Positions 1 through 48,738 of a DNA stretch of 64,000 nt are shown piece by piece. Position 1 is the stretch's first letter. Each line of letters begins with the position of its first letter. The notes under the pieces were generated by a model that saw only the letters and a list, made by a program, of their open reading frames with translations, did no database searches and was not told the DNA's origin. This stretch comes from Myxococcota bacterium. Lineage in GTDB: Bacteria > Myxococcota > Kuafuiibacteriia > Kuafuiibacteriales > Kuafuiibacteriaceae. A program made the position numbers and the translations under genes. Location of the stretch: positions 7,402-71,401 of the forward strand of contig DAIQNR010000005.1 of NCBI GenBank assembly GCA_036788295.1, in the 5' to 3' direction.

Positions 1-850
1 CGTAGAAACTCTTCGCGGAATCGGCTCGGTGCCCCAGCGCTCCGCTCGGCACGCCGAGCACCCAAACCTCGACGCCTCGCCCTGGCTTCTCGATGCGCGC
101 CGCCATCGATCGGTGCTCCTCGGCGGAGACCTCCTTGGACAGCGCGAGCAGTACGACTTGGGCCTGGCTCATGCGAACCGCCCAGACCAGCTCCTCCCGG
201 GGCAACTCGGGCCCGAGGTACAGCGGATCGAGACCCCTGCTCGCGGCGAGCAAGGCGGCCACTAGCACCCGCATCTCTCGTCGGTGCCCAGCGGGGGTGC
301 TGAGCAGGATCTGCGGCGCGTCGGCCCGCGGCGGGGCGTAACGCAGCAGCGTGCTGACCAAACTGCGCAGCTGGGAGACGACCATCTGCTCTTGGGCCAT
401 CAATCCTCCGCTGGTCCACTCGGTCTCGAAGCCCTGCACCAGCGGCACCACCAGCCCGAACAGCAGCTCTCGATGGTCGAGAAAGGAGGCAGCCCGCATG
501 AGCACGTCCAAAGCCCGCCGCGCGTCGAAGCGCTCCACGGCGCGCCGGTAGTCTCCGCGGAGCTCGGCGATCCCGCGATCCGAGGCCAGCTGGCTCTCCG
601 GCGGGAGCGCCGGACTCTCGGGCGACTCACCGGAGAGCTGCTCGAGCGCCTCGATCGAGAGCTTGGCGATGCTGGAGATGGCGTGACCTTTCGAGGTCGC
701 GTCCCGGAGCAGGACCAGACGCCGGACTTCCTCGGCGGAGAACCGGCGGGTGTTGCCCGCGCTCCGAACGGGCTCGATCGCGCCGTAGCGGCGCTCCCAG
801 GCTCGAATGGTGTCCGCGCTGAGCCCGGTGAGCCGAGTCACCAACCGCAT
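1..850 (-). CDS. carH: CarH/LitR-family light-responsive transcriptional repressor, 3' end beyond window start. MerR HTH (MRLVTRLTGLSADTIRAWERRYG...TRRFSAEEVRRLVLLR) followed by a B12-binding-like region (…STPAGHRREMRVLVAALLAASRGLDPLYLGPELP…). ATG at 850 on the minus strand; GTG/TTG alternatives a few codons upstream.
   Basis: My own reverse-strand translation (no ORF in the track because there is no stop inside the window). MerR HTH plus cobalamin-binding-like domain order; last gene of the crtE-crtI-crtB operon, as with Myxococcus carA/carH. Confidence 0.6.
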   Translation of the reverse strand, partial: MRLVTRLTGLSADTIRAWERRYGAIEPVRSAGNTRRFSAEEVRRLVLLRDATSKGHAISSIAKLSIEALEQLSGESPESPALPPESQLASDRGIAELRGDYRRAVERFDARRALDVLMRAASFLDHRELLFGLVVPLVQGFETEWTSGGLMAQEQMVVSQLRSLVSTLLRYAPPRADAPQILLSTPAGHRREMRVLVAALLAASRGLDPLYLGPELPREELVWAVRMSQAQVVLLALSKEVSAEEHRSMAARIEKPGRGVEVWVLGVPSGALGHRADSAKSFY

Positions 851-893
851 CGGGTAGAGCCCAGATTCCAAGGCAGCGCTCGGGTCCACCCGC

Positions 894-1706
894 TCACCCC
901 CCCAGCGCGCGAAGCGGGGTCGAAGGGGCGAAAGCGAGATTCGCCACCTGCTCTGATTGTTCGTGCATGGGTACGTGCCCTGCGCCAGCTATGGCAAACA
1001 CCGTGAGCTTCGGCCACACCTCTCGAAATCGGTCCACCGAGTCGAGCACCGCGGAGAAGGTGCTCTCTCCGTGGATGATCTCAACCGGACCCCGAAATTT
1101 GGCCTGCTGCTCGAGCGGGACCGAGACGCCGTCGCAGAGCGCCCTCAGCAGACGGTAGTTCTCCTCGTGGGAGACCTCGGCGAAGCCTTCGGTCAAGCTC
1201 ACGCCGGCCGGGCGACGACCCCCGAGCGCCCCGTCGGTCAAGGCGCGCCCGAAAGGGTTCGCGAACGTGAGCCGATACAGGGCCGGACCAAGAACCGGGA
1301 GCAGAAAGATGCGAAAGTACCAGGGCACGAACGCGAATGGATCGACGAGAACCAGCCGCTCGAAGCGTTCGGGTTGCCGAGACGACAGGCGCATCGCCGG
1401 GCAGGCCCCGCCGCACGCAGCGATGACCTCGACCCGATCGAGCCCGAGCGCATCGATGGCCTCGGCGAGGCGGTCGGTCAGTCCCTCCGCGGTCCACTCG
1501 GTCGGTCGAGCGCTCCCGCCCACACCGGGCAGATCGAAGGCGTACAAGGTGGCTTCGGCGGGGAGGAAGCGAACGAGCGGGTCGAAGCTCGCGCTCGAGC
1601 CGCTCCAGCCGTGAAGGCCCACGAAGGGCCGCGTTCCCTGGCCATGCACGACGACCCTGCAGCCGGCGGCGCGGCGCTCCACGCCGAGGGTGGGTGAAGC
1701 GTTCAT
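894..1706 (-). CDS. alpha/beta-hydrolase fold protein inside the carotenoid operon
   Basis: 270-aa ORF with an alpha/beta-hydrolase-like fold (HGWSGS.., GGAC nucleophile-elbow-like, C-terminal GAGHVPMHE). Stop overlaps the crtB stop/start region; 44 nt upstream of carH. Confidence 0.65.
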   Translation of the reverse strand: MNASPTLGVERRAAGCRVVVHGQGTRPFVGLHGWSGSSASFDPLVRFLPAEATLYAFDLPGVGGSARPTEWTAEGLTDRLAEAIDALGLDRVEVIAACGGACPAMRLSSRQPERFERLVLVDPFAFVPWYFRIFLLPVLGPALYRLTFANPFGRALTDGALGGRRPAGVSLTEGFAEVSHEENYRLLRALCDGVSVPLEQQAKFRGPVEIIHGESTFSAVLDSVDRFREVWPKLTVFAIAGAGHVPMHEQSEQVANLAFAPSTPLRALGG

Positions 1707-2698
1707 CCTTCCCCTACGCGGCCGAGCAGCCGGGGGTTGCAGCCGGGGAGCCCCGCGAGCGCTCGATGCAGCTCCGGCGGGTGGGAAGGAGCCGGTCCGA
1801 GGCCGAGAAGGCGGGGCGCCACCGCGATGCCGAGCAGCGCGACCGCGGCCCGACGGATCTTTTCCCCCCCGCTCACGACGGTGCGGCCCCCCATCGGGTC
1901 GCCGCCCGCCCTCGTCAGCTTGTGGCCAATGGCCCGATACACCCGGCTCGCGACCAAGATCGCGACTCGAGGTCGAAACGGGATGTACCGCAGCCCCTGA
2001 TCGCCGCTTCGATAGTAGCGGTCGGCCAGGCGAACGACGTCGCCCACCACCTCGGCCAGGGCCCGCCTTCTCCCCTCGTCGGTCAGGAGCCGGCCCTGAA
2101 CCAAATCATCGGGGGACAGGCCTCGGTCGGCGAGCCGGGAGGTGGGCAGATACACCCGGCCCAGCCGCGCGTCCTCGGCCACGTCCCGGCAGATGTTGGT
2201 CAGCTGCATCGCCACGCCGAGGTCCACCGCGAACGGCGAAGCCTCCGCCGACCGAACCCCGATGATCGGGCACATCAGCAGCCCTACGGTGCCTGCGACC
2301 CGGTACCCGTACCGGATCAGCGCGTCGTCGTCGGGGACCCTAACCTCTCCGAGGTCGGACGCCACCCCCGCGAGCAGCTCGGCGGCGTGGGCCGGCTCGA
2401 TCCCCCGGCGATGCGCCACTTCGAGGAACGCGCCCACCACCGGGCCGGCCGCTGTCCGCCCGAACAGCTCGTCGTCGAGCCTCGCCACCGCCTCCAAACC
2501 GGCCGCGGGATCGGGGGCCTCATCGGCGGCGTCATCGGCGAATCGGCAGAAGGTGTACACCACGGCGGCGTCGGCGCGGTCCGCAGCGGGGAGAAACCGA
2601 GCCGCAAACGAAAAGCTCTTCGAGCCGGCGCCGAGCACCGCGTGGAAATCGGGGAGGACCGGCGCCTCCAACGAGACGAGCGCGCTGGCTTCGCTCAC
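1703..2698 (-). CDS. crtB: phytoene synthase (CrtB). Likely GTG start at 2698 overlapping the crtI stop; the ORF stays open to 2950.
   Basis: Squalene/phytoene synthase motifs (…GAGSKSFSFAARFLP…AVVYTFCRFADDAADE…, second Asp-rich region …NICRDVAEDARLGRVYLP…). Confidence 0.85.
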   Translation of the reverse strand: MSEASALVSLEAPVLPDFHAVLGAGSKSFSFAARFLPAADRADAAVVYTFCRFADDAADEAPDPAAGLEAVARLDDELFGRTAAGPVVGAFLEVAHRRGIEPAHAAELLAGVASDLGEVRVPDDDALIRYGYRVAGTVGLLMCPIIGVRSAEASPFAVDLGVAMQLTNICRDVAEDARLGRVYLPTSRLADRGLSPDDLVQGRLLTDEGRRRALAEVVGDVVRLADRYYRSGDQGLRYIPFRPRVAILVASRVYRAIGHKLTRAGGDPMGGRTVVSGGEKIRRAAVALLGIAVAPRLLGLGPAPSHPPELHRALAGLPGCNPRLLGRVGEG

Positions 2699-4233
2699 AC
2701 TGCGACCTTCGACCCCCTCGACGCCGCCGGCACGGGCACGCGCTCGGCGTCGGACGGCCGGGGCAACAGCTGCTCGGTCGCTTTCGCGGTCGAGAGCACC
2801 CCGGGCAAGCCGGCGCCGGGATGCACGCTCGCTCCGACGAAATACAGGCCGTCCACGTCCTCCGACCGGTTGTGGTACCGAAACCAAGCCGACTGGGTGA
2901 GGATCGGCTCGAGCCCGAACGCGGCGCCGTCCACGGAGCGCAGTTCGCACTCGAAGTGGTCGGGGGTGATGAAGTGGGAGGTCACGAGGTTGTCTCGCAG
3001 GCCGGGTACGCCCCGCTTCTCGAGCTCACCATAGATCCGGTCGAGGTACCGCTCGCCGAGCTCGCTCCAATCGAGCCCGCTTCGGTTGTTCGGAACCGGC
3101 GACAGAACATAGAAGTTCTCGTGGCCGGCGGGCGCGAGGTCTGGGTCGCTGCGCGTAGGAGCGTGGAGGTACAAGGAGAAGTCCTCGGCCAAGGTCTTCT
3201 TGTCGAAGATGTCCTTCAAGAGCCCCTCGTACCGGGGGCCGAGCACGATCGTGTGGTGGGCCAGGTCGGGATAGGTTCTCTTCGTGCCGAAATAGGCGAC
3301 GAACAGGCTCATCGACGGCCGGCGGCGGGCCACCGACCGGTCGGTGTGCTTCTTTCGGTGCTTCGCGTCCACCATCCGGGTGTACACGAAGGACGGGTCG
3401 GCGTTCGCGACCACGAACCGGCACGGGATGCGCTCCCCGCCTACGAGGTGGACAGCGGTGGCGCGACCGTCCTTCACCTCGATGGTCTCCACCGGCGCGC
3501 TGGTTCGCACCTCGACGCCGATGTCTTCGAGCAGCCGACCCAGCGACCGGACCACCGCCGCGGTCCCGCCTTTCGCGAAGTGCACCCCCCACTCGCGCTC
3601 GAGCCAGTGGATCAGCGCATAGATGGACGTAACTCGGAATGGGTTGCCGCCGACGAGCAAGGGCTGAAATGTGAACACCTGCCGGAGCCGCTCGTCCTCG
3701 ATGTAGCTCGAGACCATCGAGTACACGCTTCGGAAGCTCCCCAGCCGGACCAGGTCGGGGATGACCTTCAGCATGTCCGTGAGCTTGTCGAAAGGAACGT
3801 CGGCCAGCTTCAGGTAGCCGATGTCGAAGATCTGCTTCATCTTCTCGGCCATGCGCCGATAGTTGTCCACGTCGGGCGGGTTGAACTCCTTGATGCGGGC
3901 CAGGAGTCGCTCCTCGTCCCCGACGTAGTCGAACTTCGTCCCGTCGGAGAAGTCGATGCGGTAGAATGGGTCCACCGGCATCAGCTCGAGATAGTCTTCA
4001 CGCCGCCGGCCGACCAAGGAGAACAGCTCGTCGATGAGATAGGGGGCGGTGATGACCGTGGGTCCCATGTCGAAGCTGAAACCCTGATCCTCGATCACGC
4101 TGGCCCGGCCTCCGAGCTGGTCCCGAGCCTCGAGCAGCACCGTCTCGTAGCCCAGAGCCCGGACCCGAACCGCCGCGGCCAGCCCGCCGAAACCCGACCC
4201 GATCACCACCACCGGCTGCCGGTCGCCCGTCAT
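2695..4233 (-). CDS. crtI: phytoene desaturase (CrtI)
   Basis: N-terminal FAD Rossmann motif MTGDRQPVVVIGSGFGGLAAAVRV and CrtI-family body. ATG 4233 overlaps the crtE stop (ATGA). Confidence 0.85.
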   Translation of the reverse strand: MTGDRQPVVVIGSGFGGLAAAVRVRALGYETVLLEARDQLGGRASVIEDQGFSFDMGPTVITAPYLIDELFSLVGRRREDYLELMPVDPFYRIDFSDGTKFDYVGDEERLLARIKEFNPPDVDNYRRMAEKMKQIFDIGYLKLADVPFDKLTDMLKVIPDLVRLGSFRSVYSMVSSYIEDERLRQVFTFQPLLVGGNPFRVTSIYALIHWLEREWGVHFAKGGTAAVVRSLGRLLEDIGVEVRTSAPVETIEVKDGRATAVHLVGGERIPCRFVVANADPSFVYTRMVDAKHRKKHTDRSVARRRPSMSLFVAYFGTKRTYPDLAHHTIVLGPRYEGLLKDIFDKKTLAEDFSLYLHAPTRSDPDLAPAGHENFYVLSPVPNNRSGLDWSELGERYLDRIYGELEKRGVPGLRDNLVTSHFITPDHFECELRSVDGAAFGLEPILTQSAWFRYHNRSEDVDGLYFVGASVHPGAGLPGVLSTAKATEQLLPRPSDAERVPVPAASRGSKVAV

Positions 4234-5312
4234 CGCTTCGCCTCCATCAAGTCTCGAATGGGAGCCAGGGAGCGCTCGACGAGTCCGAGCGCCACCTCCC
4301 TGAGTCCAGCCTCCGCCGCGAGCAGCGGTGACTCCCGAACGCCTTCTTCGAGCTCGCGAATCCGGCCGATGACCGCGTCGACCGTGCCTCGGCTCTCGAA
4401 GCGCTCCGCGACCCGCTCTACGTCGCGGGCGCTCGTCTCCTCGCGCCCCTTCGCCAGCAGGGCCACGAGCCACTTTTCGTCCTCCGGGCAACGGCGCAGG
4501 TGCTCGGCCACGAGCGCGCTCACCCGGCCCTCTCGGACGTCACCGCCCGGCTCTCCGCGGCCCTTGTCGCCGTAGAGGTCGAGGACGTCGTCCTGGATCT
4601 GAAACAGGAGGCCGACCGGCCGAAACGCGTCGGCGAGCGCTTCCGCGACCTCCGGGGGCCTCCCAGCGAGAAGCGCCGCCCCGTGCACCGGGAGCACCAT
4701 CAGCGCCGAGGTCTTGCCCGCCGAGGCCTCCACGTACGAGTTCCAGTCCCACTGGCCGCTCTCGAGCAAGCACATCTCCAGCGATTGTCCCCGTACGGTG
4801 TCTTCGGCCCGGCGCGCGACCGCCCGGGCGAGCTGCCAGCGGGTCGCGTCGTCGCAGTCCAAGTGTTCCAGGGCGAGGTACGGCAGCATCAGGAGCAGGT
4901 CGCCGGCGTTGATCGCCTGCGAACGGCCGTGCCTGACCCACACCGTGAAGTGGCCGCGCCGGACCGGATCGCTGTCCTGCAGGTCGTCGTGCACGAGGCT
5001 CGCGTTGTGGAGGAGCTCGCATGCGGCCGCCCAGGCCACCGCGCTGCCCGCCGGCGCCCCGAGGGCGTCGAGGCTCGAGAGCGCGAGCTTCGCCCGCAGC
5101 CGCTTCCCCCCGGTGAACAGGTGCTCCTGCACGATCGCGCCGAGACGCTCGAATCGCCGACCGGCGGCCAGCTTCAGCATCAGCGCCTTGATTTCGGCCA
5201 GACGCGCGTCGGCGTCGATCGTGTCCTCCCCAGAGGAGGCGCCGCGGCTTTCGCGCAGGTCGTGCGGGCGTCCGGGCGGCGGGGCTCCGGGGTCGGTGCT
5301 CAACGAACTCAT
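4230..5312 (-). CDS. crtE: geranylgeranyl diphosphate synthase (CrtE, polyprenyl synthetase)
   Basis: First and second Asp-rich motifs (LVHDDLQDSD; IQDDVLDLYGD) typical of trans-IPPS. Confidence 0.8.
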   Translation of the reverse strand: MSSLSTDPGAPPPGRPHDLRESRGASSGEDTIDADARLAEIKALMLKLAAGRRFERLGAIVQEHLFTGGKRLRAKLALSSLDALGAPAGSAVAWAAACELLHNASLVHDDLQDSDPVRRGHFTVWVRHGRSQAINAGDLLLMLPYLALEHLDCDDATRWQLARAVARRAEDTVRGQSLEMCLLESGQWDWNSYVEASAGKTSALMVLPVHGAALLAGRPPEVAEALADAFRPVGLLFQIQDDVLDLYGDKGRGEPGGDVREGRVSALVAEHLRRCPEDEKWLVALLAKGREETSARDVERVAERFESRGTVDAVIGRIRELEEGVRESPLLAAEAGLREVALGLVERSLAPIRDLMEAKR

Positions 5313-5396
5313 GTGTGGGTCCTGGGGGAAATGCCGTGCGCCCGCGGCGGGCCGCGGCGAAGCAAAATCACGCGGCGACTCTCGAAATCGGGCCGA

Positions 5397-5421
5397 TGTC
5401 TGTCAATGATTTGTCTAACTC
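5397..5421 (-). promoter_or_regulatory. Putative CarH-type operator overlapping a sigma70-like -35 (TTGACA) upstream of crtE. On the minus strand it reads gagTTAGACAaatcaTTGACAgaca: two 11-bp-spaced direct repeats carrying the nAnnTnnACAn signature, in a local AT-rich island.
   Basis: Sequence inspection of the crtE upstream gap (5313-5475). The repeat geometry matches the TtCarH/MxCarH operator architecture known from the literature. Confidence 0.4.
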
Positions 5422-5475
5422 GGGGCCGACCATTCCTGGACCGGCGGCGGCAGGCCCCGGTCACCAGGTTTTGGG

Positions 5476-6696
5476 TCAGCGCCACGGCCACAGGGCCGAC
5501 CAGAGGATCGGGCCGCGGGGACCGAGTCCGGCCCCGACGAGGCGCCGCCGAAGATCCCAATCCGCCGCCGCGAAGACGCCGAGCATGGCCGCCCTCACCG
5601 CCGAAGGCGAAGCGGTCCCCGACAGATAGCCAGTCCACAGCGGGTCCGGCAGCGAGAAGAACGCGGTGAAGAAGCGCTGGAGCTGGGCCGTGTCGAGCCC
5701 GAGCAAGACTTCCGAGCCAAACCGGAACAAGTCGTGGGCCACCCGCTCGTCCCTCGACCACACCGCCGCCCACGCCCGCGCCGACCGGGCGTCCCGGTCC
5801 TCGCCGGACTCGAGCCCCTCGGCGACCGCAGCAGCGAGGCGGGGAGCCGTGCGGAGCACGCGCGCGAGCAGGTAGCCGCTCGCCGGGTGTACCTGGCGAG
5901 CCGCTCCGCCAAAACCCACCACCGGCTGCACCGCCGGCGGCGGCGGCCCCCCCATGGGAATGAAGCAACGCTCGACTTCGAGCACCCGCCCCACCGAGAC
6001 CCCGAGACGCCCGAGGCGAGACTGCAGCCGGGCCTCGAGCTGCTCGATCGGTAGCCCTGGACGGGCGACGAGCGACGTCTCCTCGAAGAACACCACCCGT
6101 TCGTCTTCGGGGAGGACATAGAGAAAGCTCGGGACGCGCGCGGCCTCCGTGGAGCGGTCGGGCGGCCGAAAATCCATGAGCACAGCCTCGCCCTCGGGAA
6201 AACGGTGCCCGCGCTCGAGCTCGGCCCGGATCCCGTAGGCAACTTGCCACCCTGGCGCGGGCCCGGGCCGATGGCGGAGCAGCCGGCTCTCATGGCCCGA
6301 AGCGTCGATCACCAGGTCGGCGCCCAGGGTTCCATCGCTCGTGCGCACCCAAAAGCGGTCGCCCTCGGGCTCCACCGCATCCGCCACCCCAACGACGCGC
6401 ACCGCGGAGGAGGCGTCGTCGAGCAGCCGCTCTCGCAGCCGGTCGTTCGCGACTCGTCCGTACGCCCGCGCGAAGGCCCGCTCCGCCGTATCGGAGCCGT
6501 GCACACGAACCCGAGGCCAGGTGCGCTCGAGCACCGACTCGAAGCCGGACACTTCGTCGACCCAAACTCCGTAGCCGTTGCGAAATGGGGCTTCGGGCTC
6601 CGGCGCCACCAGCGTCACCGCGAGACCGCGGCGGCACAGCGCGCCCGCCGCCGCCCACCCCGCCGGACCGGCTCCGATGACCAGCACCTCCGCCAC
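5476..6696 (-). CDS. lycopene cyclase, CrtL/CrtY family (FAD-dependent). Start set at GTG 6696 just before the Rossmann motif VAEVLVIGAGPAGW; the ORF is open to 7032.
   Basis: Motifs VLVIGAGPAGWAAAG, FLYVLP, FGGAARQVHPASGY match lycopene beta-cyclase (CrtL type). Confidence 0.75.
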   Translation of the reverse strand: MAEVLVIGAGPAGWAAAGALCRRGLAVTLVAPEPEAPFRNGYGVWVDEVSGFESVLERTWPRVRVHGSDTAERAFARAYGRVANDRLRERLLDDASSAVRVVGVADAVEPEGDRFWVRTSDGTLGADLVIDASGHESRLLRHRPGPAPGWQVAYGIRAELERGHRFPEGEAVLMDFRPPDRSTEAARVPSFLYVLPEDERVVFFEETSLVARPGLPIEQLEARLQSRLGRLGVSVGRVLEVERCFIPMGGPPPPAVQPVVGFGGAARQVHPASGYLLARVLRTAPRLAAAVAEGLESGEDRDARSARAWAAVWSRDERVAHDLFRFGSEVLLGLDTAQLQRFFTAFFSLPDPLWTGYLSGTASPSAVRAAMLGVFAAADWDLRRRLVGAGLGPRGPILWSALWPWR

Positions 6697-6883
6697 GCCT
6701 CCGCCTTCGCATGGCGACGGGTCCGCGAAAAGCCCGGCCGCGCATCTCCGCGAAAACCTCGACTTCGACCTCCGCGGCCCGTACGTGGAGGCCCGGCCGG
6801 TGCGCTCGAAGGGAGGATCCCAGTCCCCCCAGCGCGTCGGCCAAGACGGCGGAGACGGCGAAGCCGTTGACCGAGGCTGCGAC

Positions 6884-8020
6884 ATGAACGAACCGGGCAA
6901 AACGAGCACCATGATGTCGCTCGGCGATCCCTCGCGAGGGGATGTGGACGAAGCGGTGCTCGACGCGCCCGGGGGGTTCGCGTGGTGGTATGTGGACACC
7001 ATCGATGAGCACGGCGACGGCGCGGTGATCATCTGGTCCTGGGGTTTGCCCTTCCTCCCCGGCTATCTGTCCGGGGTCCGCGCCGGACGGGGGGATGCGG
7101 CGCGGGACCGCCCGAGCCTGAACGTGGCCCTGTACCGCGGGGGTCGCCGCCACTTCTACCTGCTTCAGACGTACGCGCCAGGCGAGGCCGAGCTGCTGGG
7201 CGACGGACGGTTCCGTTTCGGTCGCACCCGGATCGAGACTTCCTCTTCAGGGACGGTGCAGATCGACCTCGACTGCGATCTCTTCCGCACCAGCGAAAAA
7301 CTGACCGGACGTTTCGTCGTGGAGGGCCCACGAGCGCGGCTCGCCCCTGGCCTGTCGCCGAGCGACGATCGCAACCATCGCTGGACCCCGGTGCTCGGTC
7401 CGGCTCGGGCGCGGGCCGTGCTCGAGGTGGGGAGCGAGACGGTGCGCATCGACGGCCCCGCCTACCACGACCGAAACGAGGGCACGCAGCCGTTCGACCA
7501 GCTCGGAATCGACCACTGGTCATGGGGACGGCTCGTGACCGCGACCGAGACCTCCATCTGGTACGTCAACCACGCGCTCGACGGGCCCCCGATGGCGTGG
7601 GGCGTGCGCCTCGACGAGTCCGGGATCGTGCACCTCGCCGCCGAGCTCGAGCCCCGGTTCGAGCGACCCCGTAGCGGCCCATTCGGGCTTCGCACCTGGG
7701 ATCGCATACGGCTGCTCGACGCCAGCGGGTCCGAGTGGATCGCCGCCGACACCGGGCCGCGGGTGGACGACGGCCCATTCTATGCCCGAACGTTGAGCTC
7801 GGTCCGGTCCAGCGGGAGGGAGGGTCCCGGCCTCGGGGAGTGGATCGTGCCCCACCGGATCGACCTCTCCGTGCACCGGCCACTGGTGCGGATGGCGGTG
7901 CACAACGCGAGCGGTCCGAACTCGATTTGGCTTCCCCTCTTCAGCGGCCCGAAGGCCGGCCGGCTCGCCCGACTGCTCGGGCTCAAAAGGCGCCGAAACC
8001 TCGGTGAGACCGCCGCATGA
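6884..8020 (+). CDS. crtC: carotenoid 1,2-hydratase (hydroxyneurosporene synthase, CrtC)
   Basis: CrtC-family motifs GGFAWWYVD, PAYHDRNEG, HWSWGR, GPFYARTL. ATG at 6884 inside the longer open frame 6578-8020. Confidence 0.8.
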   Translation: MNEPGKTSTMMSLGDPSRGDVDEAVLDAPGGFAWWYVDTIDEHGDGAVIIWSWGLPFLPGYLSGVRAGRGDAARDRPSLNVALYRGGRRHFYLLQTYAPGEAELLGDGRFRFGRTRIETSSSGTVQIDLDCDLFRTSEKLTGRFVVEGPRARLAPGLSPSDDRNHRWTPVLGPARARAVLEVGSETVRIDGPAYHDRNEGTQPFDQLGIDHWSWGRLVTATETSIWYVNHALDGPPMAWGVRLDESGIVHLAAELEPRFERPRSGPFGLRTWDRIRLLDASGSEWIAADTGPRVDDGPFYARTLSSVRSSGREGPGLGEWIVPHRIDLSVHRPLVRMAVHNASGPNSIWLPLFSGPKAGRLARLLGLKRRRNLGETAA

Positions 8021-9150
8021 GCGCGAATTGGATCGTGGCCGTGCTCCCGCTGACCGTGTTCGCGGTGGCGCTCGTCAACCTCTTCCTCTGGCCACGAGGG
8101 CGACCGGGAACCCAGCTTCCCGGGACGCTTTCCGTGCTCATCCCGGCGAGAGACGAGGCGGGGCGCATCGAGCGCACGGTTCGGGCCGCGCTCGCCAGCA
8201 CCCACCCGGTGGCCGAGGTCCTCGTCTACGACGACGGCTCCAAAGACGCGACGCCCGAAATCCTGGCCGAGATCGCCGCTCAGGACCGGCGCTTGACGGT
8301 GCTCGTGGGCGGCGGTCTCCCGGACGGCTGGATCGGGAAGGCCCACGCTTGCCACCGCTTGGCCGAGGCAGCTTCCGGTGAGTACCTCTGCTTTCTCGAC
8401 GCGGACGTCGTCCTTGCTCCCCGGGGGCTCGAGCACTTGGCGGACGTGTTCGACCGGCTCGACGCCTCCGTGGTGACCGCGGTGCCGAGGCAGGAGGCCG
8501 GTACCTGGTTCGAGCGCCTCGTGCTGCCCCTGCTCCATCTCACCTATGTATCCTGGCTGCCCATGCCTCTCATCTGGCGCTCGAAGGATCCCCGGTTCTT
8601 GGCCGCGAACGGCCAGCTGCTCGCCCTGCGCGCGGACGCCTACCGCCGCTTTGGAGGTTACGAGTCCGTCCGCTCCGAGGTCGTGGACGACATGGCGTTC
8701 TGCCGAGCGGCCAAACGCGCCGGGCTGCGGGTCGTCTTCGCCGACGGCGCGTCGATGGCGACGTGCCGCATGTATTGCTCGGCCCGCGAGGTCTGGGAAG
8801 GTTTCTCGAAGAACCTGTACGAGGGGGTCGGGGCTCGTCCGGACGCCCTGCTGCTCGCCCTGGCGCTCAACGTGGGCGCCTTCCTGCTCCCGTGGGTCCT
8901 CCTTGCCGCAGCGATCTCGGACCCAGCCTGGCTCGCCCCAGCCGCGGTGGGCGTCATCGCCAACGTGAGCCAGCGGGGGCTGCTCGCCTGGCGGCACCGG
9001 CAGCCGTGGTCATCGCTGCTGCTTCATCCCTTGTCCATCTTGGCCCTGGTGGCGATCGCGGTGAACTCGTGGCGCTGGCAGGCTTCGGGCTCCATTTGCT
9101 GGCGAGGAAGGACGTACGCTCGTCGAGCGGAGCGGGGGGTGTCGGGATGA
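8017..9150 (+). CDS. family-2 glycosyltransferase, putative carotenoid glycosyltransferase (CruC/CrtQ-like), membrane-anchored
   Basis: GT2 signature LSVLIPARDEAGRIERTV…VLVYDDGSKDATPEIL plus C-terminal TM helices. ATGA overlap with the crtC stop and with the crtD start. Confidence 0.7.
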   Translation: MSANWIVAVLPLTVFAVALVNLFLWPRGRPGTQLPGTLSVLIPARDEAGRIERTVRAALASTHPVAEVLVYDDGSKDATPEILAEIAAQDRRLTVLVGGGLPDGWIGKAHACHRLAEAASGEYLCFLDADVVLAPRGLEHLADVFDRLDASVVTAVPRQEAGTWFERLVLPLLHLTYVSWLPMPLIWRSKDPRFLAANGQLLALRADAYRRFGGYESVRSEVVDDMAFCRAAKRAGLRVVFADGASMATCRMYCSAREVWEGFSKNLYEGVGARPDALLLALALNVGAFLLPWVLLAAAISDPAWLAPAAVGVIANVSQRGLLAWRHRQPWSSLLLHPLSILALVAIAVNSWRWQASGSICWRGRTYARRAERGVSG

Positions 9151-10637
9151 GCCGAGTCGTGGTCATCGGAGCGGGCGTCGGCGGGCTCTGCGCCGCCATC
9201 GAGCTTGCGTCCCAGGGGGTCGAGGTCCTCGTGCTCGAAGCTCGGGGAGCCCCGGGCGGCAAGGCCGGCGTCGGGAGCTTCGACGGCGTGGAGTTCGACA
9301 CCGGCCCGAGCGTCCTCACGCTGCCCGAGATCTTCGATCAGGTGCTGAAGAGCGCCGGCACCAGGCTCGAAGACGAGCTGACCCTCATCCGGCCGGAGCC
9401 AGCGTTTCGCTATCTGTATCCCGATGGCACTGCGCTCGACGTGCACCATGAGATCGGGGCGACGCTCGATTCGGTGAACGGCACGCTCGGGGCAGAGGCC
9501 CGGCTCGAGCTCGAGCGGTTCATGGTCTACGCCGGCCGCATCTGGTGGGCGAGCGCCGACACCTTCGTGTTCGGCGACGCCCCGACCGTCGGCGCGGTGC
9601 TGAAGTTCGGTTTGCGCGGTCTGGGTCAGCTCTTCGCGATCGATGCCGGTCGCTCGATGGCCCGCGCCATCGACGCGAAGATTCGAAGCCCCCACCTTCG
9701 GGACCTCCTCCTTCGATACGCCACCTACAACGGCTCCGACCCCTATCGAGCACCGGCGACGCTGAACTGCATCGCTCACGTCGAGCTCGCGCTCGGGGGC
9801 TTCGGGATCGAAGGCGGCATCCACCGGCTGGCGACGGCGCTCGCCCGGGTGGCGGAGCGATCCGGGGCCGAGATCCAATACGACGCGCCCGCGAGCGAGA
9901 TCGTGGTCGAGCGTTCCCGGGCGGTGGCGGTCCGGACGCGGGGCGGCCCACCGATCCGGTGCGACGCGGTCGTCGCGAACGCCGACCCGGAGCACGTCTT
10001 TCGCCATCTCCTGCCCGAGGAGGTGGGCGCCGCCCGAAGGAGCCGCGCGACCCCCTCGACGTCGGGCTGGACCGCGGTGATCCGGGCCAGGAGAGACCCG
10101 GCTCGCGCCGCCCACACCGTGCTGTTCCCGGCGACGTACCGAGAGGAGTTCGCCGACTTGTTCGAGCGGGAGCGCCCCCCGGAGGACCCGACCGTGTACC
10201 TCTGCGACCAAGCGGTCTGCCACCGGCGCACAGGGTGGGCGGATGCGGTGCCTCTGTTCGCGATGGCCAACGCCCCGGCCGAACCGGAGGACGGTCGGAC
10301 CCCCGACGAGGTGTGGAATGGGCTCGAGGAGAGGATCAGGGCCCGCCTGGCCGCTGGCGCGCTCGTGGACGCCGGCGATCCGATCGTGTGGAAGCGCACC
10401 CCGACCGGGCTCGCCGAGACCTTCCCCGGCAGCCGTGGCGCCCTCTACGGGGCGGCATCGAACACGCCGCTCGCGGCGTTTCGGCGCCCTCCGAACCGTC
10501 TGAGCAACCCCCGGGGCCTCTACCTCGCGAGCGGGGGCGCGCACCCGGGCGGAGGCTTGCCCCTGTGCGCGTCGAGCGGACGAGCGGCGGCCAGGGCCGC
10601 GCTCGCCGACCTCGGCGTCGAAAACGGAGCAGCATGA
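9147..10637 (+). CDS. crtD: phytoene-desaturase-family carotenoid desaturase, putative CrtD (3,4-desaturase of hydroxylated acyclic ends)
   Basis: MSRVVVIGAGVGGLCAAIELA… Rossmann start and CrtI-family body. Placement after crtC and the GT supports the CrtD call; specificity is inferred. Confidence 0.65.
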   Translation: MSRVVVIGAGVGGLCAAIELASQGVEVLVLEARGAPGGKAGVGSFDGVEFDTGPSVLTLPEIFDQVLKSAGTRLEDELTLIRPEPAFRYLYPDGTALDVHHEIGATLDSVNGTLGAEARLELERFMVYAGRIWWASADTFVFGDAPTVGAVLKFGLRGLGQLFAIDAGRSMARAIDAKIRSPHLRDLLLRYATYNGSDPYRAPATLNCIAHVELALGGFGIEGGIHRLATALARVAERSGAEIQYDAPASEIVVERSRAVAVRTRGGPPIRCDAVVANADPEHVFRHLLPEEVGAARRSRATPSTSGWTAVIRARRDPARAAHTVLFPATYREEFADLFERERPPEDPTVYLCDQAVCHRRTGWADAVPLFAMANAPAEPEDGRTPDEVWNGLEERIRARLAAGALVDAGDPIVWKRTPTGLAETFPGSRGALYGAASNTPLAAFRRPPNRLSNPRGLYLASGGAHPGGGLPLCASSGRAAARAALADLGVENGAA

Positions 10638-11380
10638 ACCCCTCCTTCCTGATCGCGCTCGCCATGAGCCCAGCCCCGGACGCCCCGGAGTGGCCCGATT
10701 TGCAGGGTCACTGGGCCTTCTCTCAGGTCACGACCGCGGTGTCGAAGGCGCCGCTGCTCGGCGAGGTCACGACGCAGACCCGCGCGCTGGGCACCGTCCG
10801 GATCAAGCAGAGCGGGGAGAAGCTCGATCTTCTCGAGACCCTGTGCACGCTCGAGACGAGCGATCCGTCCCCGATGGTGAAGACCCGCTACCCCGACGCG
10901 TTCATCGCCGCCCTGTCCGGCAACCGTCGCTCCGCCCGGTTGAAGACCGGTCCGGACGGCTTTCGCTTCGTGCAGGACAAGACCTGGACCGTCCACGGGG
11001 CGGAGATCCTGAACCAGGGCGACGCCCTGCCCACCGACGCTTCGGACCCCCGGGTGCGCGACGACGACGGGGACGGCGCGCCGGGGCTGACCGTGCAGGT
11101 CAGCGGCATCGTGAGCGGGCAGCTGCGGGTGGTCACCCGGGGCTGGACCGCTCTGGATGCTCGAGTCCACGAAGCCGACCGGGTACAAGGGCGGGTGCAG
11201 TGGGGGACCGAGCAGCGGGTGCTCGGCGTGACCCACTGGCTGCTCGACCACCAGCCCCGGCTCCGGCCCCACCCCGACCAGGACCGCTCCCACTTCGCTC
11301 TGGTGAGGCTCCCGGAAGCCACCACCTGCGCTACCGTGGTCGGCGCGGCCGACCGTCTGTTTGCCGAAGCCCGACCCTAG
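10634..11380 (+). CDS. hypothetical protein, translationally coupled to crtD (ATGA); possible N-terminal signal-like segment (FLIALAMSPAPDAP)
   Basis: In frame with the long ORF 9545-11380; ATG 10634 overlaps the crtD stop. No recognisable family. Confidence 0.45.
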   Translation: MNPSFLIALAMSPAPDAPEWPDLQGHWAFSQVTTAVSKAPLLGEVTTQTRALGTVRIKQSGEKLDLLETLCTLETSDPSPMVKTRYPDAFIAALSGNRRSARLKTGPDGFRFVQDKTWTVHGAEILNQGDALPTDASDPRVRDDDGDGAPGLTVQVSGIVSGQLRVVTRGWTALDARVHEADRVQGRVQWGTEQRVLGVTHWLLDHQPRLRPHPDQDRSHFALVRLPEATTCATVVGAADRLFAEARP

Positions 11381-11483
11381 GGCTGCCACCGCATTTCTCC
11401 CTTTACTTGGCGGGTCCGTTGGTTGAAGCAGGCCCGCGCGAGGGGCGATTCGCCCTCCGACGTCCCCGCACCGAGGTCAAGCC

Positions 11484-13583
11484 GTGATCAGCGACATCAG
11501 CATCGTCAGGAACATTGGGATCTCCGCCCACATCGACAGCGGGAAGACCACCCTGACCGAGCGGATCCTCTTCTACACCAACCGGGTCCACGCCATTCAC
11601 GACGTGAAGGGCAAAGATGGCGTCGGCGCCAAGATGGACTCCATGGAGCTCGAGCGGGAGCGCGGGATCACCATCGCGAGCGCCGCCACCTACTGCGAGT
11701 GGAAGAAGCACCACATCAACATCATCGACACCCCCGGGCACGTGGACTTCACGATCGAGGTCGAGCGCTCCCTGCGGGTGCTCGACGGGGCGATCCTCGT
11801 CCTGTGCTCGGTGGCCGGTGTCCAGTCCCAGTCCTACACGGTGGACCGCCAGATGAAGCGGTACAACGTGCCCCGGCTCGCCTTCGTGAACAAGTGCGAC
11901 CGCGTGGGCGCCAACCCGGTCCGCGTCCGAAACCAGCTCCGAGAGAAGCTGGGACACAACGCGGTGATGATGCAAATCCCCATCGGTCTCGAGGACAAGC
12001 ACGTCGGGGTGGTGGACCTCATCGAGATGAAGGCCCTCTACAACGATGGCCCGAACGGGGAGAAGATCATCGAAAAGGAGATCCCTGCCGAGCTCCTGGA
12101 CGAGGCCGCGGCGTACCGCGAGGAGATGCTCGACTCGGTCTCGATGTTCTCCGAAGAGCTCATGGAGGCCATGCTCGAGGAGAACGTCACCCCCGAGCTC
12201 ATCCGGAAGGCGGTTCGTGACGGGACGATCTCCCTTCAGCTCACCCCGGTCTTCATGGGTTCCGCGTTCAAGAACAAGTCCGTGCAGCCGCTGCTCGACG
12301 CGGTCACGCTGTACCTGCCGAACCCGGCCGAAGTGAGAAACGAGGCGATCGACCTGACGTCGGGCGCGGACGAGTCCCGGGTGGTCTTGAAGACCGATCC
12401 CGACGCTCCGTTCGCCGGACTCGCCTTCAAGCTCGAGGACGGCCGGTACGGTCAGCTCACCTACGTGCGCATCTACCAGGGGAAGGTGGCTCGCGATGAC
12501 TTCATCGTGAACACCCGCACCGGCAAGAAGACGAAGGTGGCCCGCCTGGTCCGCATGCACTCGGACGACATGGAAGACATCCAGGCTGCGTCGGCGGGCG
12601 ACATCGTGGCCGTCTTCGGGCTCGATTGCGCATCGGGCGATACCTTCACCGACGGGACGCTCAAGATCGCGATGACCTCGATCTTCGTCCCCGACCCGGT
12701 GATCTCGCTGTCGATCAAGCCGAAGGACTCGAGGTCCGAGCAGAACCTCAGCAAGGCGCTGAACCGATTCACGAAGGAAGACCCCACGTTCCGGGCCGGA
12801 GTGGACCCGGAGTCGGGGGAGACGGTCATCCAGGGCATGGGGGAGCTTCAGCTCGACGTGTACATCGAGCGGATGAAGCGGGAGTACAGCTGCATCGTGG
12901 AGACCTCGGCGCCCCAGGTGGCGTACCGAGAGACCTTCACCCAGCGGGCGGACTTCAACTACACCCACAAGAAGCAGACCGGCGGCTCCGGACAGTACGG
13001 AAAGATCGCGGGCTTCCTCGAGCCCATCCCCGAGGAAGAGGCCACGGAGTTCGAGTTCGTCGATGACACGGTCGGCGGCGTCATCCCGAAGCAGTTCATC
13101 CCGTCGGTGGAGAAGGGCTTCAAGTCCATGCTCGCCAAGGGCCGACTCATCGGGTTCCCCGTGGTCAACGTGCGCGTGGTGATCAACGATGGCGGCTCCC
13201 ACGCGGTCGACTCGTCGGACAACGCGTTTCAGGAGGCCGCCCGGGGAGCGTGGCGAGCGACCTTCGACAAGGCGCGCCCGCGGATCCTCGAGCCGGTGAT
13301 GAAAGTCGTCGTCGAGGGACCCTCCGAGCACGCGGGCAACGTGCTGCAGACGATCATGCAGCGGCGCGGCATCATCAACGGCTCGCAGGAGGAAGACGGC
13401 ATGACCCGCACCGAGGCGGAGGTGCCGCTCGCGGAGATGTTCGGCTACGCGACCGTCCTGCGGTCGGCTACCCAGGGCAAGGCCGAGTTCTCGATGGAGT
13501 TCTCGCGGTACATGCTCACCCCCTCGACCGTCGAGGAGGAGCTGGTGGCGAAGGCACGGGAAAAAGAAGCCAGCAAGAAGTGA
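11484..13583 (+). CDS. elongation factor G paralog (EF-G2 class)
   Basis: Full five-domain EF-G ([18 protein letters not shown]…[22 protein letters not shown]…NKCDR). GTG start. Distinct from the canonical fusA in the str operon at 46642-48738. Confidence 0.85.
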
Positions 13584-15945: not shown

Positions 15946-16919
15946 AGCGCGCCCTGCTCGGACGACTGCACCCGGAGGGGTTTCACGGCCGGGGCGCCGG
16001 GTCGCCGTTTTTCGAAGGGTGGTACCTCAAGCTCGCGACCGCCGACGAAACGAGAGCGGTCGCGCTGATCCCAGGGATCTTTCGCGGCCGCCAACCAGCG
16101 TCCCACCACGCCTTCGTGCAGGTCGTGGATGAAGGCGTGCGGTACCATCGCTTCTCGGCCGGTCAGCTCGACGGGGCCGAAGACCGCTTCGACGTCCGCA
16201 TCGGTCCGAATCGCTTTCACGAACACGGGCTCTCGGTCGATCTCGACCGCTGCCGCGGGGACCTGCGGTTCGGTCCGATGACCCCTTGGCCGGTGTCCAT
16301 CCCTTCGCCCGGGGCGATGGGTTGGTTCGCTTGGGTCCCGTTCATGCAATGTTACCACGCGGTCCCGAGCTTTGGTCACGAGCTTTACGGCTACCTCGAG
16401 CTCGATGGACAAAGCATCGACTTCACCGGGGGCCGCGGCTACCTCGAGAAGGATTGGGGCCGGAGTTTTCCGAAGACGTGGGTATGGATGCAGGGTCAGC
16501 ACTTCAACGAAGACTTCTGCGTCGCAGTGTCCCTCGCCGACGTCCCTTGGCTCGGCCGGTCGTTTCCCGGTCTGCTCGCCGCCATGCATTTTTCGTCGCC
16601 CCCCCCCGAGCTCGATCCGTTTCTGTTTTTGACGACCTACGGCGGCGCTCGGGTCAGGGGCCTGGCGCGGACTCCCGACGGCATCGATCTTCGGGTCGGC
16701 GGCGGCGGCTTCGAGCTGGAGCTCAACGCTCGAGGCGGCGCCCCGGTTTCCATTCACATCCCATCGGAGGACTCGATGGATCAGGTCGTCGAGGAGCGCC
16801 TCGGCGCGACGCTCTCGGTGCGCTTGTCGAGACGAGGGCGGACCGTTCTCGAGACGCGAGGCCAACTCGCCGCCTACGAAGCCCACGGCGACATCGACCG
16901 GCTCGGGGGAAAGTCATGA
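15942..16919 (+). CDS. tocopherol cyclase (VTE1/Slr1737 family)
   Basis: N-terminal SPFFEGWYLKL (plant VTE1: KFFEGWYFRV) and core YLEKDWGRSFPKTWVWMQGQHF (VTE1: [22 protein letters not shown]). GTG start overlaps the MT1 stop (GTGA). Confidence 0.85.
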   Translation: MKRALLGRLHPEGFHGRGAGSPFFEGWYLKLATADETRAVALIPGIFRGRQPASHHAFVQVVDEGVRYHRFSAGQLDGAEDRFDVRIGPNRFHEHGLSVDLDRCRGDLRFGPMTPWPVSIPSPGAMGWFAWVPFMQCYHAVPSFGHELYGYLELDGQSIDFTGGRGYLEKDWGRSFPKTWVWMQGQHFNEDFCVAVSLADVPWLGRSFPGLLAAMHFSSPPPELDPFLFLTTYGGARVRGLARTPDGIDLRVGGGGFELELNARGGAPVSIHIPSEDSMDQVVEERLGATLSVRLSRRGRTVLETRGQLAAYEAHGDIDRLGGKS

Positions 16920-46641: not shown

Positions 46642-48738
46642 TCAGGGCCTCACCTGGGCGTTCGCCAGCACCCCCTCCGCGACACGCGAAGGAACGGGAC
46701 TGTATGATCCAAACCTCATCGAAAAGCTCGCCCGACCCCGGGTTCGCGACCGAAGGTCGCTCGCGTACCCGATCATGGAGGCGAGCGGCACTTCCGCAAT
46801 CACCACATGGGCCCCCGCCCGAGGGTCGAGAGCCACGACGCGACCTCGCCGCGCCTGCAGGTCGCCCACGACATCCCCGGTGGCGGACTCCGGTACCGTC
46901 ACCTCGACCCGCATGAGCGGCTCGAGCACCGTGGGCTCCGCGGCCCGGACCGCGTGGGCAAAAGCGAGGGCGGCAGCGGTTCGGACCGCGAGCGCCACCG
47001 GACCGGGGCCATCGGCCTCGACCTCGAGGAGGCGGACCGAGATGTCCGACACCTCGTACCCCGACGGACCGCCCTGGACCGCAGCTTCTCTCACGCCGTC
47101 CCGGACCGCGTCCCACCACTGCCGTCGTACCGACACGTCGGACGACATGCGGAGGCTCTGGCCGCCCTCCGGGCCAGAGACCCCAGGTCCAACCTCGAGC
47201 ACGACCCGCGCGCTGAGCACGCCCTCGGGGACCGATCGCTGGCAGCGACCCTCGCGGCGAGCCGCCGCGGACACGGTCTCGCGGTAGGCGACCAGGCGAC
47301 GGCCCACCGCGACCCCGACACCGAAGTCCCTTCGGAGCCGCTCGACCGAGACGTCGAGGTGCAGCTCGCCGAGACCGCCGAGCAGGGTCTGACCGGTCTC
47401 GGGATCGGCCCGCACCGCCAAGGATGGGTCCTCCGCGAGCAGCGCCGCCAACGCGGCTTCGAGCGGCAAGCGGTCGGCCTCGGTCTGCGGCAGCACCGCG
47501 ACCGAGAACACCGGCTCGGGGACGGGGAGAGACTCGAGCCGCACCTCAGAGGAGGACGCGCACAGAGTATCGCCCGTCACGACCCGAGCCAGGCCCTCGA
47601 CCGCCACGACCATTCCCGTGGTCGCCACCGCCACCTCGAACTGCTGGTTTGCATGGACCCGGCAGACCCGGCGAACCCTCTCCGCCTGGCCGGTCCGAGG
47701 GTTGAGGACTTCCGACCCGGACCGAAGTTCACCCCGATAGATGCGGACGAAGGTGAGCCGAGCCCCGCCCCGGTCGGCGACAACCTTGAAGGCCATCGCC
47801 ACGAGCGGCTCGGCCGGGTTGGGCTCGATCCTCACGACGGCGTTGCCCGCCGTCCGCGCCACCGGCGCCGGGAAGTCGCGGGGGGAAGGGAGGTACGCGG
47901 CCATCGCGTCGAGCAAGGGCTCGATTCCGCGGTTGTCGAGCGCAGACCCGCACAACACGGGGCACGCCTCGAGGGCGAGGCAGGCTCTGCGCACCGCGCG
48001 CGCGAGTTCGTCTCCGGGGATGTGCTCCCCCTCGAGGTAGCGACGCTCGAGCGCTTCATCGAACCCCGCCACCCGGTCGAACACCCGATCCCGGGCCGCG
48101 AGCGCGGTCCTCACCCAGTCGGCAGGGATGGGGTGGCTCTCCATCGGTCCGCACGGGTCCTTCGTCGGCCACCGGAGCATCCGCTGGTGGACCACGTCGA
48201 TCACCGCGTCGAAGCCGGAGCCGCTGCCCATCGGCAGCTGCAGCGCGACCACCGGGGCGGCGAGGCGCTCCTCGAGCGCGCAGACGGCGGCCGCGAAGTC
48301 CGCTCCCGGCCGATCCATCTTGTTGATGAAGCACACTCGGGGCAGCGCGTACCGGTCGGCCTGGCGCCACACCGCCTCGGTCTGGGCCTCGACCCCCTTC
48401 TCGGCGTCGAGGAGGATCACCGCGCCGTCGAGCACGCGCAGGCTCCGCTCCACCTCGATCGCGAAATCGACGTGGCCGGGGGTGTCGATGATCTGGATGC
48501 GGTGGCCATCCCACGGCACGCTCGTCGCGGCCGCGCTGATGGTGATGCCCCGCTCCTTCTCCTGGGCGAGGAAGTCCATGGTGGCCGCGCCGTCGTGGAC
48601 TTCTCCAACCCGGGTCTCGACGCCGGTGTAGACCAGGAGGCGCTCGGTCGTGGTCGTCTTCCCCGCGTCCACATGAGCGAGGACACCGAGGTTCCGAACC
48701 AGCTCGAGGGGAATGTGACCGAGACCGACCATGACCAT
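46642..48738 (-). CDS. fusA: elongation factor G (canonical, in the str operon)
   Basis: …AHVDAGKTTTTERLLVYTGV…GEVHDGAATMDFLAQEKERGITI…DTPGHVDF…NKMDR…. Confidence 0.93.
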   Translation of the reverse strand: MVMVGLGHIPLELVRNLGVLAHVDAGKTTTTERLLVYTGVETRVGEVHDGAATMDFLAQEKERGITISAAATSVPWDGHRIQIIDTPGHVDFAIEVERSLRVLDGAVILLDAEKGVEAQTEAVWRQADRYALPRVCFINKMDRPGADFAAAVCALEERLAAPVVALQLPMGSGSGFDAVIDVVHQRMLRWPTKDPCGPMESHPIPADWVRTALAARDRVFDRVAGFDEALERRYLEGEHIPGDELARAVRRACLALEACPVLCGSALDNRGIEPLLDAMAAYLPSPRDFPAPVARTAGNAVVRIEPNPAEPLVAMAFKVVADRGGARLTFVRIYRGELRSGSEVLNPRTGQAERVRRVCRVHANQQFEVAVATTGMVVAVEGLARVVTGDTLCASSSEVRLESLPVPEPVFSVAVLPQTEADRLPLEAALAALLAEDPSLAVRADPETGQTLLGGLGELHLDVSVERLRRDFGVGVAVGRRLVAYRETVSAAARREGRCQRSVPEGVLSARVVLEVGPGVSGPEGGQSLRMSSDVSVRRQWWDAVRDGVREAAVQGGPSGYEVSDISVRLLEVEADGPGPVALAVRTAAALAFAHAVRAAEPTVLEPLMRVEVTVPESATGDVVGDLQARRGRVVALDPRAGAHVVIAEVPLASMIGYASDLRSRTRGRASFSMRFGSYSPVPSRVAEGVLANAQVRP

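Follow-up and report, generated by a model that had tools for sequence, protein, structure and literature searches.

The stretch of DNA analysed here (hereafter the window) comprises 64,000 nucleotides of contig DAIQNR010000005.1, part of the genome assembly of a Myxococcota bacterium, and carries a carotenoid gene cluster at one end; it matches a contig of assembly GCA_964504175.1. On the minus strand the genes follow each other in the order crtL, a 163-bp gap, crtE, crtI, crtB, an alpha/beta hydrolase gene and the gene of a MerR/CarH-like regulator, and crtC, a glycosyltransferase gene and crtD run divergent to crtL (Table 1). The junctions from crtE through the hydrolase gene are 4-bp overlaps, and together with Pfam and NCBIfam matches on this strand they bear out the crtE-crtI-crtB-hydrolase-regulator operon that a first-pass annotation of the locus had proposed. 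The subject of this report is a pair of 11-bp direct repeats in the crtL-crtE spacer, upstream of crtE, which very probably functions as an operator and as a part of the promoter of this operon.

The minus strand from 5421 to 5397, read directly from the window, is GAGTTAGACAAATCATTGACAGACA, letter for letter the sequence and spacing on which the first-pass annotation was built. The cores TAGACA and TTGACA start 11 bp apart (TAGACA-N5-TTGACA, 5401-5417, minus strand). That both 11-mers fit the repeat unit nAnnTnnACAn is correct for the first of them; the second deviates at position 2, with T for A, and agrees with the later published form nnnnTnnACAn (PMC9304148). The pattern TNGACA-N5-TNGACA occurs once on both strands of the window, where shuffled sequences give an expectation of 0.02, and the looser TnnACA-N5-TnnACA, the general CarH pattern, likewise has its sole occurrence at 5401-5417. 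G+C content of the 25-mer is 36%, as compared to 69% for the window. Stretches of 25 bp with a G+C content of 36% or less number one (the repeat pair) within positions 1-12000 and nine across the window, such that the pair is the only AT-rich island of its surroundings, as was claimed, if these are taken as the first 12 kb. A generic repeat finder applied to 5300-5480 did not detect the 6-bp cores, and all that it returned were chance repeats rich in G+C. The AT-rich pair is also flanked by a short direct repeat, TCGGCCCCGA (5387-5395) and TCGGCCCGA (5419-5428), minus strand, 33 bp apart; as a meaningful element this TCGGCCC(C)GA repeat was rejected, being judged a likely chance product of G+C-rich DNA. 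The divergent crtC-crtL spacer (6688-6883) contains no TnnACA on either strand, and hence a second operator was not found there.

Table 1. Features of the carotenoid locus, in coordinates of the window.
Feature	Position	Strand	Remarks
crtL-type lycopene cyclase gene	5476..6687	minus	same strand, upstream; Pfam Lycopene_cycl, E 8.5e-83; stop bounds the 163-bp gap
Outer-left pseudo-repeat, inverted	5437..5442	minus	GGTCCA; 3 of 4 TGTnnA positions; 25 nt upstream of repeat 1
Inner-left pseudo-repeat, inverted	5426..5431	minus	GGTCGG; 2 of 4 TGTnnA positions; 14 nt upstream of repeat 1
Direct repeat 1	5411..5421	minus	11-mer GAGTTAGACAA; core TAGACA 5417..5412; full nAnnTnnACAn fit
Direct repeat 2	5400..5410	minus	11-mer ATCATTGACAG; -35 hexamer inside; fits nnnnTnnACAn
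-35 hexamer, putative sigma-70-type crtE promoter	5401..5406	minus	TTGACA, perfect consensus
-10-like hexamer	5378..5383	minus	GAGAGT; 17 bp past the -35; weak, 3/6, keeps A2 and T6
crtE, polyprenyl (geranylgeranyl diphosphate-type) synthase gene	4230..5312	minus	first operon gene; Pfam polyprenyl_synt, E 1.8e-50
crtI, phytoene desaturase gene	2695..4233	minus	NCBIfam crtI_fam, 611.8 bits; 4-bp overlap with crtE
crtB, phytoene synthase gene	1703..2698	minus	Pfam SQS_PSY, E 3.5e-63; 4-bp overlaps on both sides
alpha/beta hydrolase gene	894..1706	minus	Pfam Abhydrolase_1
MerR/CarH-family regulator gene, 5' part	1..889	minus	MerR helix-turn-helix; gene runs off the window

Orthologous loci (numbered with the prefix L) were gathered without use of the motif, by a genome scan for the regulator, by a metagenome scan for CrtE, and from contigs encoding the closest regulator homologues. 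These relatives are labelled as metagenome-assembled genomes of Myxococcota or Myxococcales, with CrtE identities of 63-78% at the loci where identity was measured. The synteny of crtC (divergent), crtL, crtE, crtI, crtB, hydrolase and regulator gene is found in L005, L006, L092-L094, L096-L099 and L102; L100 and L101 lie on contigs that are too short and end before crtE. A block of the type TnGAC(A/G)-N5-TTGACA occupies the same place in 11 of the 16 orthologous crtL-crtE gaps, and the sequences flanking it diverge. The strict pattern is found in 5 of 15 independent orthologous gaps (0.003 expected), and a relaxed pattern, set post hoc after the data had been viewed, in 10 of the 15 (0.006 expected), plus L102. 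What the window, L005 and L094 have in common is T(A/C)GACAAA-n-(A/C)-ATTGACA, followed after 17 bp by (G/A)AGAG(T/A), in the midst of unrelated spacers and flanks: the repeat pairs are TAGACAaatcaTTGACA, TAGACAaataaTTGACA and TCGACAaaacaTTGACA, and the -10-like hexamers GAGAGT, GAGAGA and AAGAGT, respectively. The form T/C-n-GAC-A/G, 5 bp, and then TTGACA, GTGACA or TGGACA is present in L097, L099, L098, L006, L102, L085/L088, L087 and L096.

In an anchored alignment of these gaps the information content peaks at the two cores only. TTGACA, exact in 8 of 10 anchored relatives, is the most conserved block. A weight matrix derived from nine orthologous sites, to which the window sequence did not contribute, places 5401-5417 at the top of some 128,000 window positions with 27.0 bits; the runner-up (16406-16422, 15.1 bits) falls within a long open reading frame. 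Other relatives display other arrangements, with direct repeats at 0, 22, (33) and 44 bp in L086 and L090 and three tandem repeats of opposite orientation in L091, a variety of layouts which agrees with the description of myxobacterial CarH operators as 'plastic' (PMC9304148). In L092, whose regulator (58% identical) has a change of His142 to Gln only, the gap (2418-2522) contains two sets of CTCAGA/TCTGAG-type inverted repeats with a periodicity of about 11 bp and no TnnACA pair; this may be a different operator design.

The second repeat overlaps a perfect TTGACA, as had been noted before, and this hexamer would act as the -35 element of a sigma-70-type crtE promoter. The -10-like hexamer of the window is weak, and its position is conserved in L005 and L094. 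Independent support for the promoter comes from the subclade of L006, L098, L099 and L102, in which TTGACA is followed by 17 bp, TA(A/T)CGG, 6 nt and a conserved crtE ATG. The conserved ATGCCGGAAGAAACT of these loci encodes an MPEET N-terminus of CrtE, the gene callers having set the start elsewhere. A spacing of 6 nt between TA(A/T)CGG and the ATG implies a leaderless transcript, and crtE of this subclade thus appears to be leaderless; such a geometry fits only if TTGACA-N17-TA(A/T)CGG is the promoter. The MSSLS start of the window's CrtE is kept in L005, L093 and L094. A further short element, ATTTTGCTTCGC, lies at 5357-5368 of the minus strand, starting 9 nt past the -10-like hexamer, which would place it at roughly +2 to +13 if the transcript is as predicted. 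L094 has the near-identical ATTTTGCTTTGC at the same offset (about 3899-3910), and L005 has ATTTTCACGCTGC further downstream.

Additional half-sites are located upstream of the direct pair in several relatives. Inverted repeats TGTnnA-N5-TGTnnA stand 8-9 bp upstream of the pair in L005, L094, L096 and L097, which results in four sites in a fixed register; of 15 gaps, 5 contain the pattern TGT..[AG]-N5-TGT..A, where 0.06 would be expected. The outer-left register is occupied by TGTCGA, TGTTCA, TGTCTA or TGTCCA in L005, L094, L099, L098, L006, L096 and L102, and the inner-left register by TGTCAA or TGTCTA in L005, L094, L097 and L096. The subclade of L006, L098, L099 and L102 keeps the outer-left site alone, as TGTCTA or TGTCCA. 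In the window both registers retain the GTC core (GGTCCA and GGTCGG), and judged by these remnants the left inverted pair is decayed in this genome.

The site is an element of the same kind as the CarH operator of Thermus and the operators at Pcrt in Myxococcus, Cystobacter, Sorangium and Haliangium. Published CarH operators are built of TnnACA repeats of 11 bp, one of which contains the -35 TTGACA (PMC9304148), and the established mode of action of CarH and CarA is exclusion of RNA polymerase by the repressor, which represses its own operon (PMC8156234, PMC9304148). The conservation of the block at orthologous loci and its match to this design uphold the earlier proposal of a CarH-family operator overlapping the -35. 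A reservation voiced along with that proposal, namely that only two clear repeats are present as against three in known sites, is right as to the count and outdated as a concern: CarH DNA-binding domains bind to operators of Sorangium and Haliangium in which one or two repeats are full and the others are pseudo-repeats (PMC9304148), and two full repeats fall in the published range of one to four.

The individual systems differ in their details. Pcrt (PB), to which CarH and CarA bind in Myxococcus xanthus and other Cystobacterineae, shares with the window site the 11-bp TnnACA repeats upstream of crtE, the TTGACA inside one of these, and a repressor gene placed last in the carotenoid operon; repression there works by occlusion of a sigma-A promoter (PMC9304148, PMC8156234). 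However, the M. xanthus operator is made up of five tandem direct repeats, three of them full and two pseudo, which cover about 55 bp, compared to two full direct and two decayed inverted repeats here; gene order differs as well, and a carA-carH tandem takes the place of the single regulator gene. The Pcrt sites of Haliangium ochraceum and Sorangium cellulosum, footprinted with CarH DNA-binding-domain chimeras, are alike in that only one or two full repeats and flanking pseudo-repeats cover a putative -35/-10; the H. ochraceum site stands upstream of a carotenogenic cluster containing carH, and clusters of Nannocystineae share the CrtL-type cyclase (PMC9304148). The CarH proteins of these two species, in contrast to the window regulator, have retained the two B12 motifs and are responsive to light and B12. 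The operator of Thermus thermophilus CarH (5C8E) is alike in that one domain sits on each 11-bp nAnnTnnACAn repeat and one repeat holds the -35, and this CarH is the best match of the window regulator by sequence and fold. It differs by three tandem repeats and an AdoCbl (adenosylcobalamin)-dependent tetramer, where the window has two repeats and a regulator in which the AdoCbl ligand residues are gone.

The full regulator is a protein of 309 amino acids if read from ATG 850 (L001), or of 322 amino acids from GTG 889. The GTG is probably the start, because the GLYP motif conserved at the N-terminus of homologues has its codons upstream of those for MRLV, and because the protein cluster includes a member of 322 amino acids. 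Since this codon lies 5 nt past the hydrolase stop, hydrolase and regulator may be translationally coupled. A MerR helix-turn-helix domain is evident (Pfam MerR_1, E 4.7e-11), with the RxWERRY DNA-binding motif present as IRAWERRYG. Residues 4-240 align to T. thermophilus CarH (E 8.7e-17); at the positions matching the salt-bridge pair of the CarH dimer, the protein has kept Arg and Glu. The best Foldseek matches of an AlphaFold (AF2) model (pLDDT, the predicted local distance difference test, 89.5) are the CarH structures 5C8D, 5C8E and 5C8F (E 3e-13 for 5C8D and 5C8E); its cofactor-binding domain, which has a bundle of four helices as well as a Rossmann-type cobalamin-binding fold, reaches a TM (template modelling) score of 0.76-0.78 to CarH.

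CarH is defined by a Wx9EH motif and a His motif together (PMC8156234), and the residues of key importance for binding AdoCbl are W131, E141, H142 and, in the latter motif, H177 (PMC11796333). In the window regulator Wx9EH has become WTSGGLMAQEQ (Wx8EQ), by a deletion of one residue and replacement of His142 by Gln. The D/ExHxxG motif reads GHRREMR, with Arg at the positions of both His177 and Gly180 of CarH, and the SxV position and GG are changed to AxS and LG. The Pfam B12-binding model PF02310 has no match to the protein, and with the NCBIfam CarH model it attains 81.9 bits, where the cut-off is 400. With both defining motifs broken, the regulator is by published criteria not a CarH photoreceptor; a related domain has been excluded as photoreceptor on account of an Arg in place of His177 (PMC11796333). 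The first-pass annotation had predicted that the encoded protein exerts control dependent on B12 and light, and this part of it finds no support and is doubtful. Because the cofactor ligands are lost, the regulator is likely to act without AdoCbl, in the manner of CarA. An Rfam scan of 4800-7200 yielded no riboswitch or known RNA, the sole match being a sub-threshold isrB within crtL, and a cobalamin riboswitch as a route of B12 control was rejected on these grounds.

Loss of the B12 motifs is a recurrent feature of regulators encoded beside crt genes. The motifs are intact in L094, L096, L097 and L008; only His142 is changed in L005 and L092; and they are broken in the window, L093, L095, L098, L099 and L006. 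Among protein-database homologues 31 of 120 are degenerate. Of the 71 regulator homologues in the collected loci that do not adjoin crt genes, 70 have W, E, H142, H177 and G180 in place. The genome scan (L007 and L009-L077) gave about 70 MerR/CarH-like homologues with intact Wx9EH and His motifs and with no carotenoid gene within 10 kb. Different residues occur at the His177 position of the broken proteins, which suggests that the crt-linked clade lost its B12 motifs several times independently. The full four-site operator occurs in loci with intact or nearly intact B12 motifs, and the loci with broken motifs are devoid of the inner-left site. A tie between loss of the B12 motifs and decay of the left half-site may thus be considered as a lead.

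Based on this dataset, the explanation that we favour as a whole, and regard as probable, is a CarH-family operator on the crtE-operon promoter, bound by a B12-independent, CarA-like regulator. TAGACA-N5-TTGACA would form the core of this conserved operator, its second repeat being the -35 itself, with the weak -10 GAGAGT at a distance of 17 bp. Each MerR-type winged-helix domain of the operon-encoded regulator would occupy one 11-bp repeat. The occupied repeats would exclude RNA polymerase from the -35 and repress the carotenoid genes and, at the operon end, the regulator's own gene (autoregulation). The protein would bind DNA without AdoCbl, in function closer to Myxococcus CarA than to the CarH photoreceptor. 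A dimer on two repeats would fit; this oligomeric state is a guess. A light signal, if there is one, would have to come in differently, for example through an antirepressor, through an intact CarH paralogue elsewhere in the genome or through another ligand; the same three may relieve repression, or the system may be one of simple autoregulation.

A possible variant, compatible with this explanation, is that the operator is real and that B12 and light act on it in trans, through an intact CarH paralogue encoded elsewhere which shares the site with the degenerate regulator. There is precedent for a shared site in M. xanthus, where CarA and CarH use one operator (PMC8156234), and many related assemblies carry two intact-motif CarH-like genes on different contigs. 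However, the 64-kb window contains no second CarH-like gene, and the sampled intact paralogues have neighbours unrelated to carotenoid synthesis (an NAD-binding protein, fasciclin, a SOUL haem-binding protein, a PAS histidine kinase and a TetR regulator), not crt genes. We consider such control in trans rather unlikely.

It is unlikely, too, that the encoded regulator is itself a genuine AdoCbl-dependent CarH photoreceptor, repressing at the repeats in the dark and released by light. CarH architecture and fold are indeed found in the protein, CarH systems typically show this type of operator and a linkage to crt genes (PMC9304148), the close relatives L094, L096 and L097 keep both motifs, and a nearby His persists in GHRRE. 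Nevertheless, Wx8EQ, the two Arg residues in place of H177 and G180 and the altered SxV and GG affect residues that are described as essential to AdoCbl binding and function (PMC8156234, PMC11796333), and the lack of a Pfam B12-binding match and an NCBIfam CarH score far under the cut-off point in the same direction.

A promoter free of any repressor, in which TTGACA is the -35 and TAGACA a conserved promoter-proximal element or a chance match, would account for TTGACA being the best-conserved block, for the AT-rich region, which resembles an upstream promoter element, and for the two orthologues without a clear repeat pair. It would not account for an upstream core that is kept as T-GAC-A at exactly 11 bp across an unconserved A/T-rich spacer, for the further repeats in relatives that hold the 11-bp register, or for the fact that every syntenic operon encodes a regulator of a family known to read such repeats, and appears very unlikely. 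Least probable of all is binding of the repeats by a different transcription factor, for instance one tied to the conserved sigma-54-type activator gene that adjoins the regulator in most syntenic loci, as the site has no GG-N10-GC sigma-54 signature and a perfect sigma-70 -35, and its repeats match the CarH-family half-site and no known activator enhancer site.

Several observations weigh against the explanation that we favour. Only two full repeats are present in the window, the crtL-crtE gaps of L092 and L093 are without a clear repeat pair, and the relaxed search pattern was a post hoc choice. A consensus promoter scan of 4800-7600 yields no site because the -10 is weak (3/6), and the promoter call therefore rests on conservation. 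The His two residues before the lost ligand is kept (GHRRE), and non-canonical binding of cobalamin by the regulator is conceivable. Intact-motif CarH-like paralogues are common in related assemblies, several of which carry two. Finally, the proposed link between motif loss and left-half decay is based on only about two independent lineages.

As for the gene neighbourhood, the hydrolase gene is located between crtB and the regulator gene in all syntenic loci except L095, which has no hydrolase gene; in L097 the gene call fuses crtB with the hydrolase. In L094 an open reading frame of 61 amino acids (5022-5207) takes the crtI position between crtE and crtB, with no crtI called, and crtI seems to be deleted or displaced in this contig. 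Just beyond the window (15308-16630 of L001) the regulator adjoins a gene for a sigma-54-type activator (AAA+ plus HTH_8). Such a gene stands beside the regulator in most syntenic loci, including L092 and L098-L102, with a RecQ helicase gene beyond, and some of the loci that have it also carry a HisKA kinase and a response regulator. The window contains two genes resembling elongation factor G (EF-G), one at 11484-13583, adjoining the carotenoid cluster, and one at 46642-48738, the latter inside an apparent ribosomal-protein block (about 29-50 kb, minus strand) recognised by sizes and order of open reading frames only.

CarH, which serves as an optogenetic tool, was the founding member of the B12-based photoreceptors. 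Apart from CarA we know of no B12-independent relative of CarH. M. xanthus CarA is a CarH-derived, B12-independent crt repressor that has lost part of Wx9EH and binds an operator of the same kind overlapping the -35, and in this the window regulator would resemble it. On the other hand, CarA has EH and the His motif and no Trp, whereas the window regulator keeps the Trp and has lost both His residues; CarA arose by tandem duplication, is encoded immediately upstream of carH and works with the antirepressor CarS, whereas the window regulator is single-copy in its operon. CarA has been reported only in Cystobacterineae, where it is monophyletic (PMC9304148). Judged by motifs and context (Trp kept, both His lost, no tandem gene, another lineage), the regulator is not a CarA orthologue, and its nearest relatives are proteins of uncultured Myxococcota in a crtL-type cluster. 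Class II LitR/CarH proteins are, to our knowledge, without the cobalamin-binding fold that the window regulator has kept. One of them, PmlR2 of Pseudomonas mendocina, is likewise a MerR-type member of the LitR/CarH family, and it reportedly receives its light signal from a partner photoreceptor, an adjacent LOV protein (PMC9758184); no LOV gene was seen in the operon of the window.

In part the finding is ordinary, as it adds another CarH-type operator at a myxobacterial crt promoter. Distinctive are the restriction to two full repeats, the inverted-plus-direct four-site layout in relatives, and a regulator that fails both criteria of a CarH photoreceptor; an apparently chromophore-less CarH in a lineage with repeated losses of this type is less ordinary. 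For annotation it follows that a 'CarH/LitR-like' gene beside crt genes should be checked for both signature motifs before B12 or light control is assumed. The locus and its relatives constitute a natural series within one conserved operon, with intact, partly degenerate and fully degenerate B12 sites, each with a readable operator. This series makes it testable how a photoreceptor-repressor loses its chromophore and keeps repression, and whether operator architecture follows oligomeric state. It is possible, and we put this forward tentatively, that in a lineage of uncultured Myxococcota the single CarH gene of the carotenoid operon repeatedly lost its B12 ligands without duplication, outside the Cystobacterineae and independently of CarA, and that the operator shrank from four sites to two direct repeats on the -35. 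If this is true, B12-independent CarH-derived repressors would have evolved more than once, and the oligomeric state of the regulator would have co-evolved with the design of its operator.

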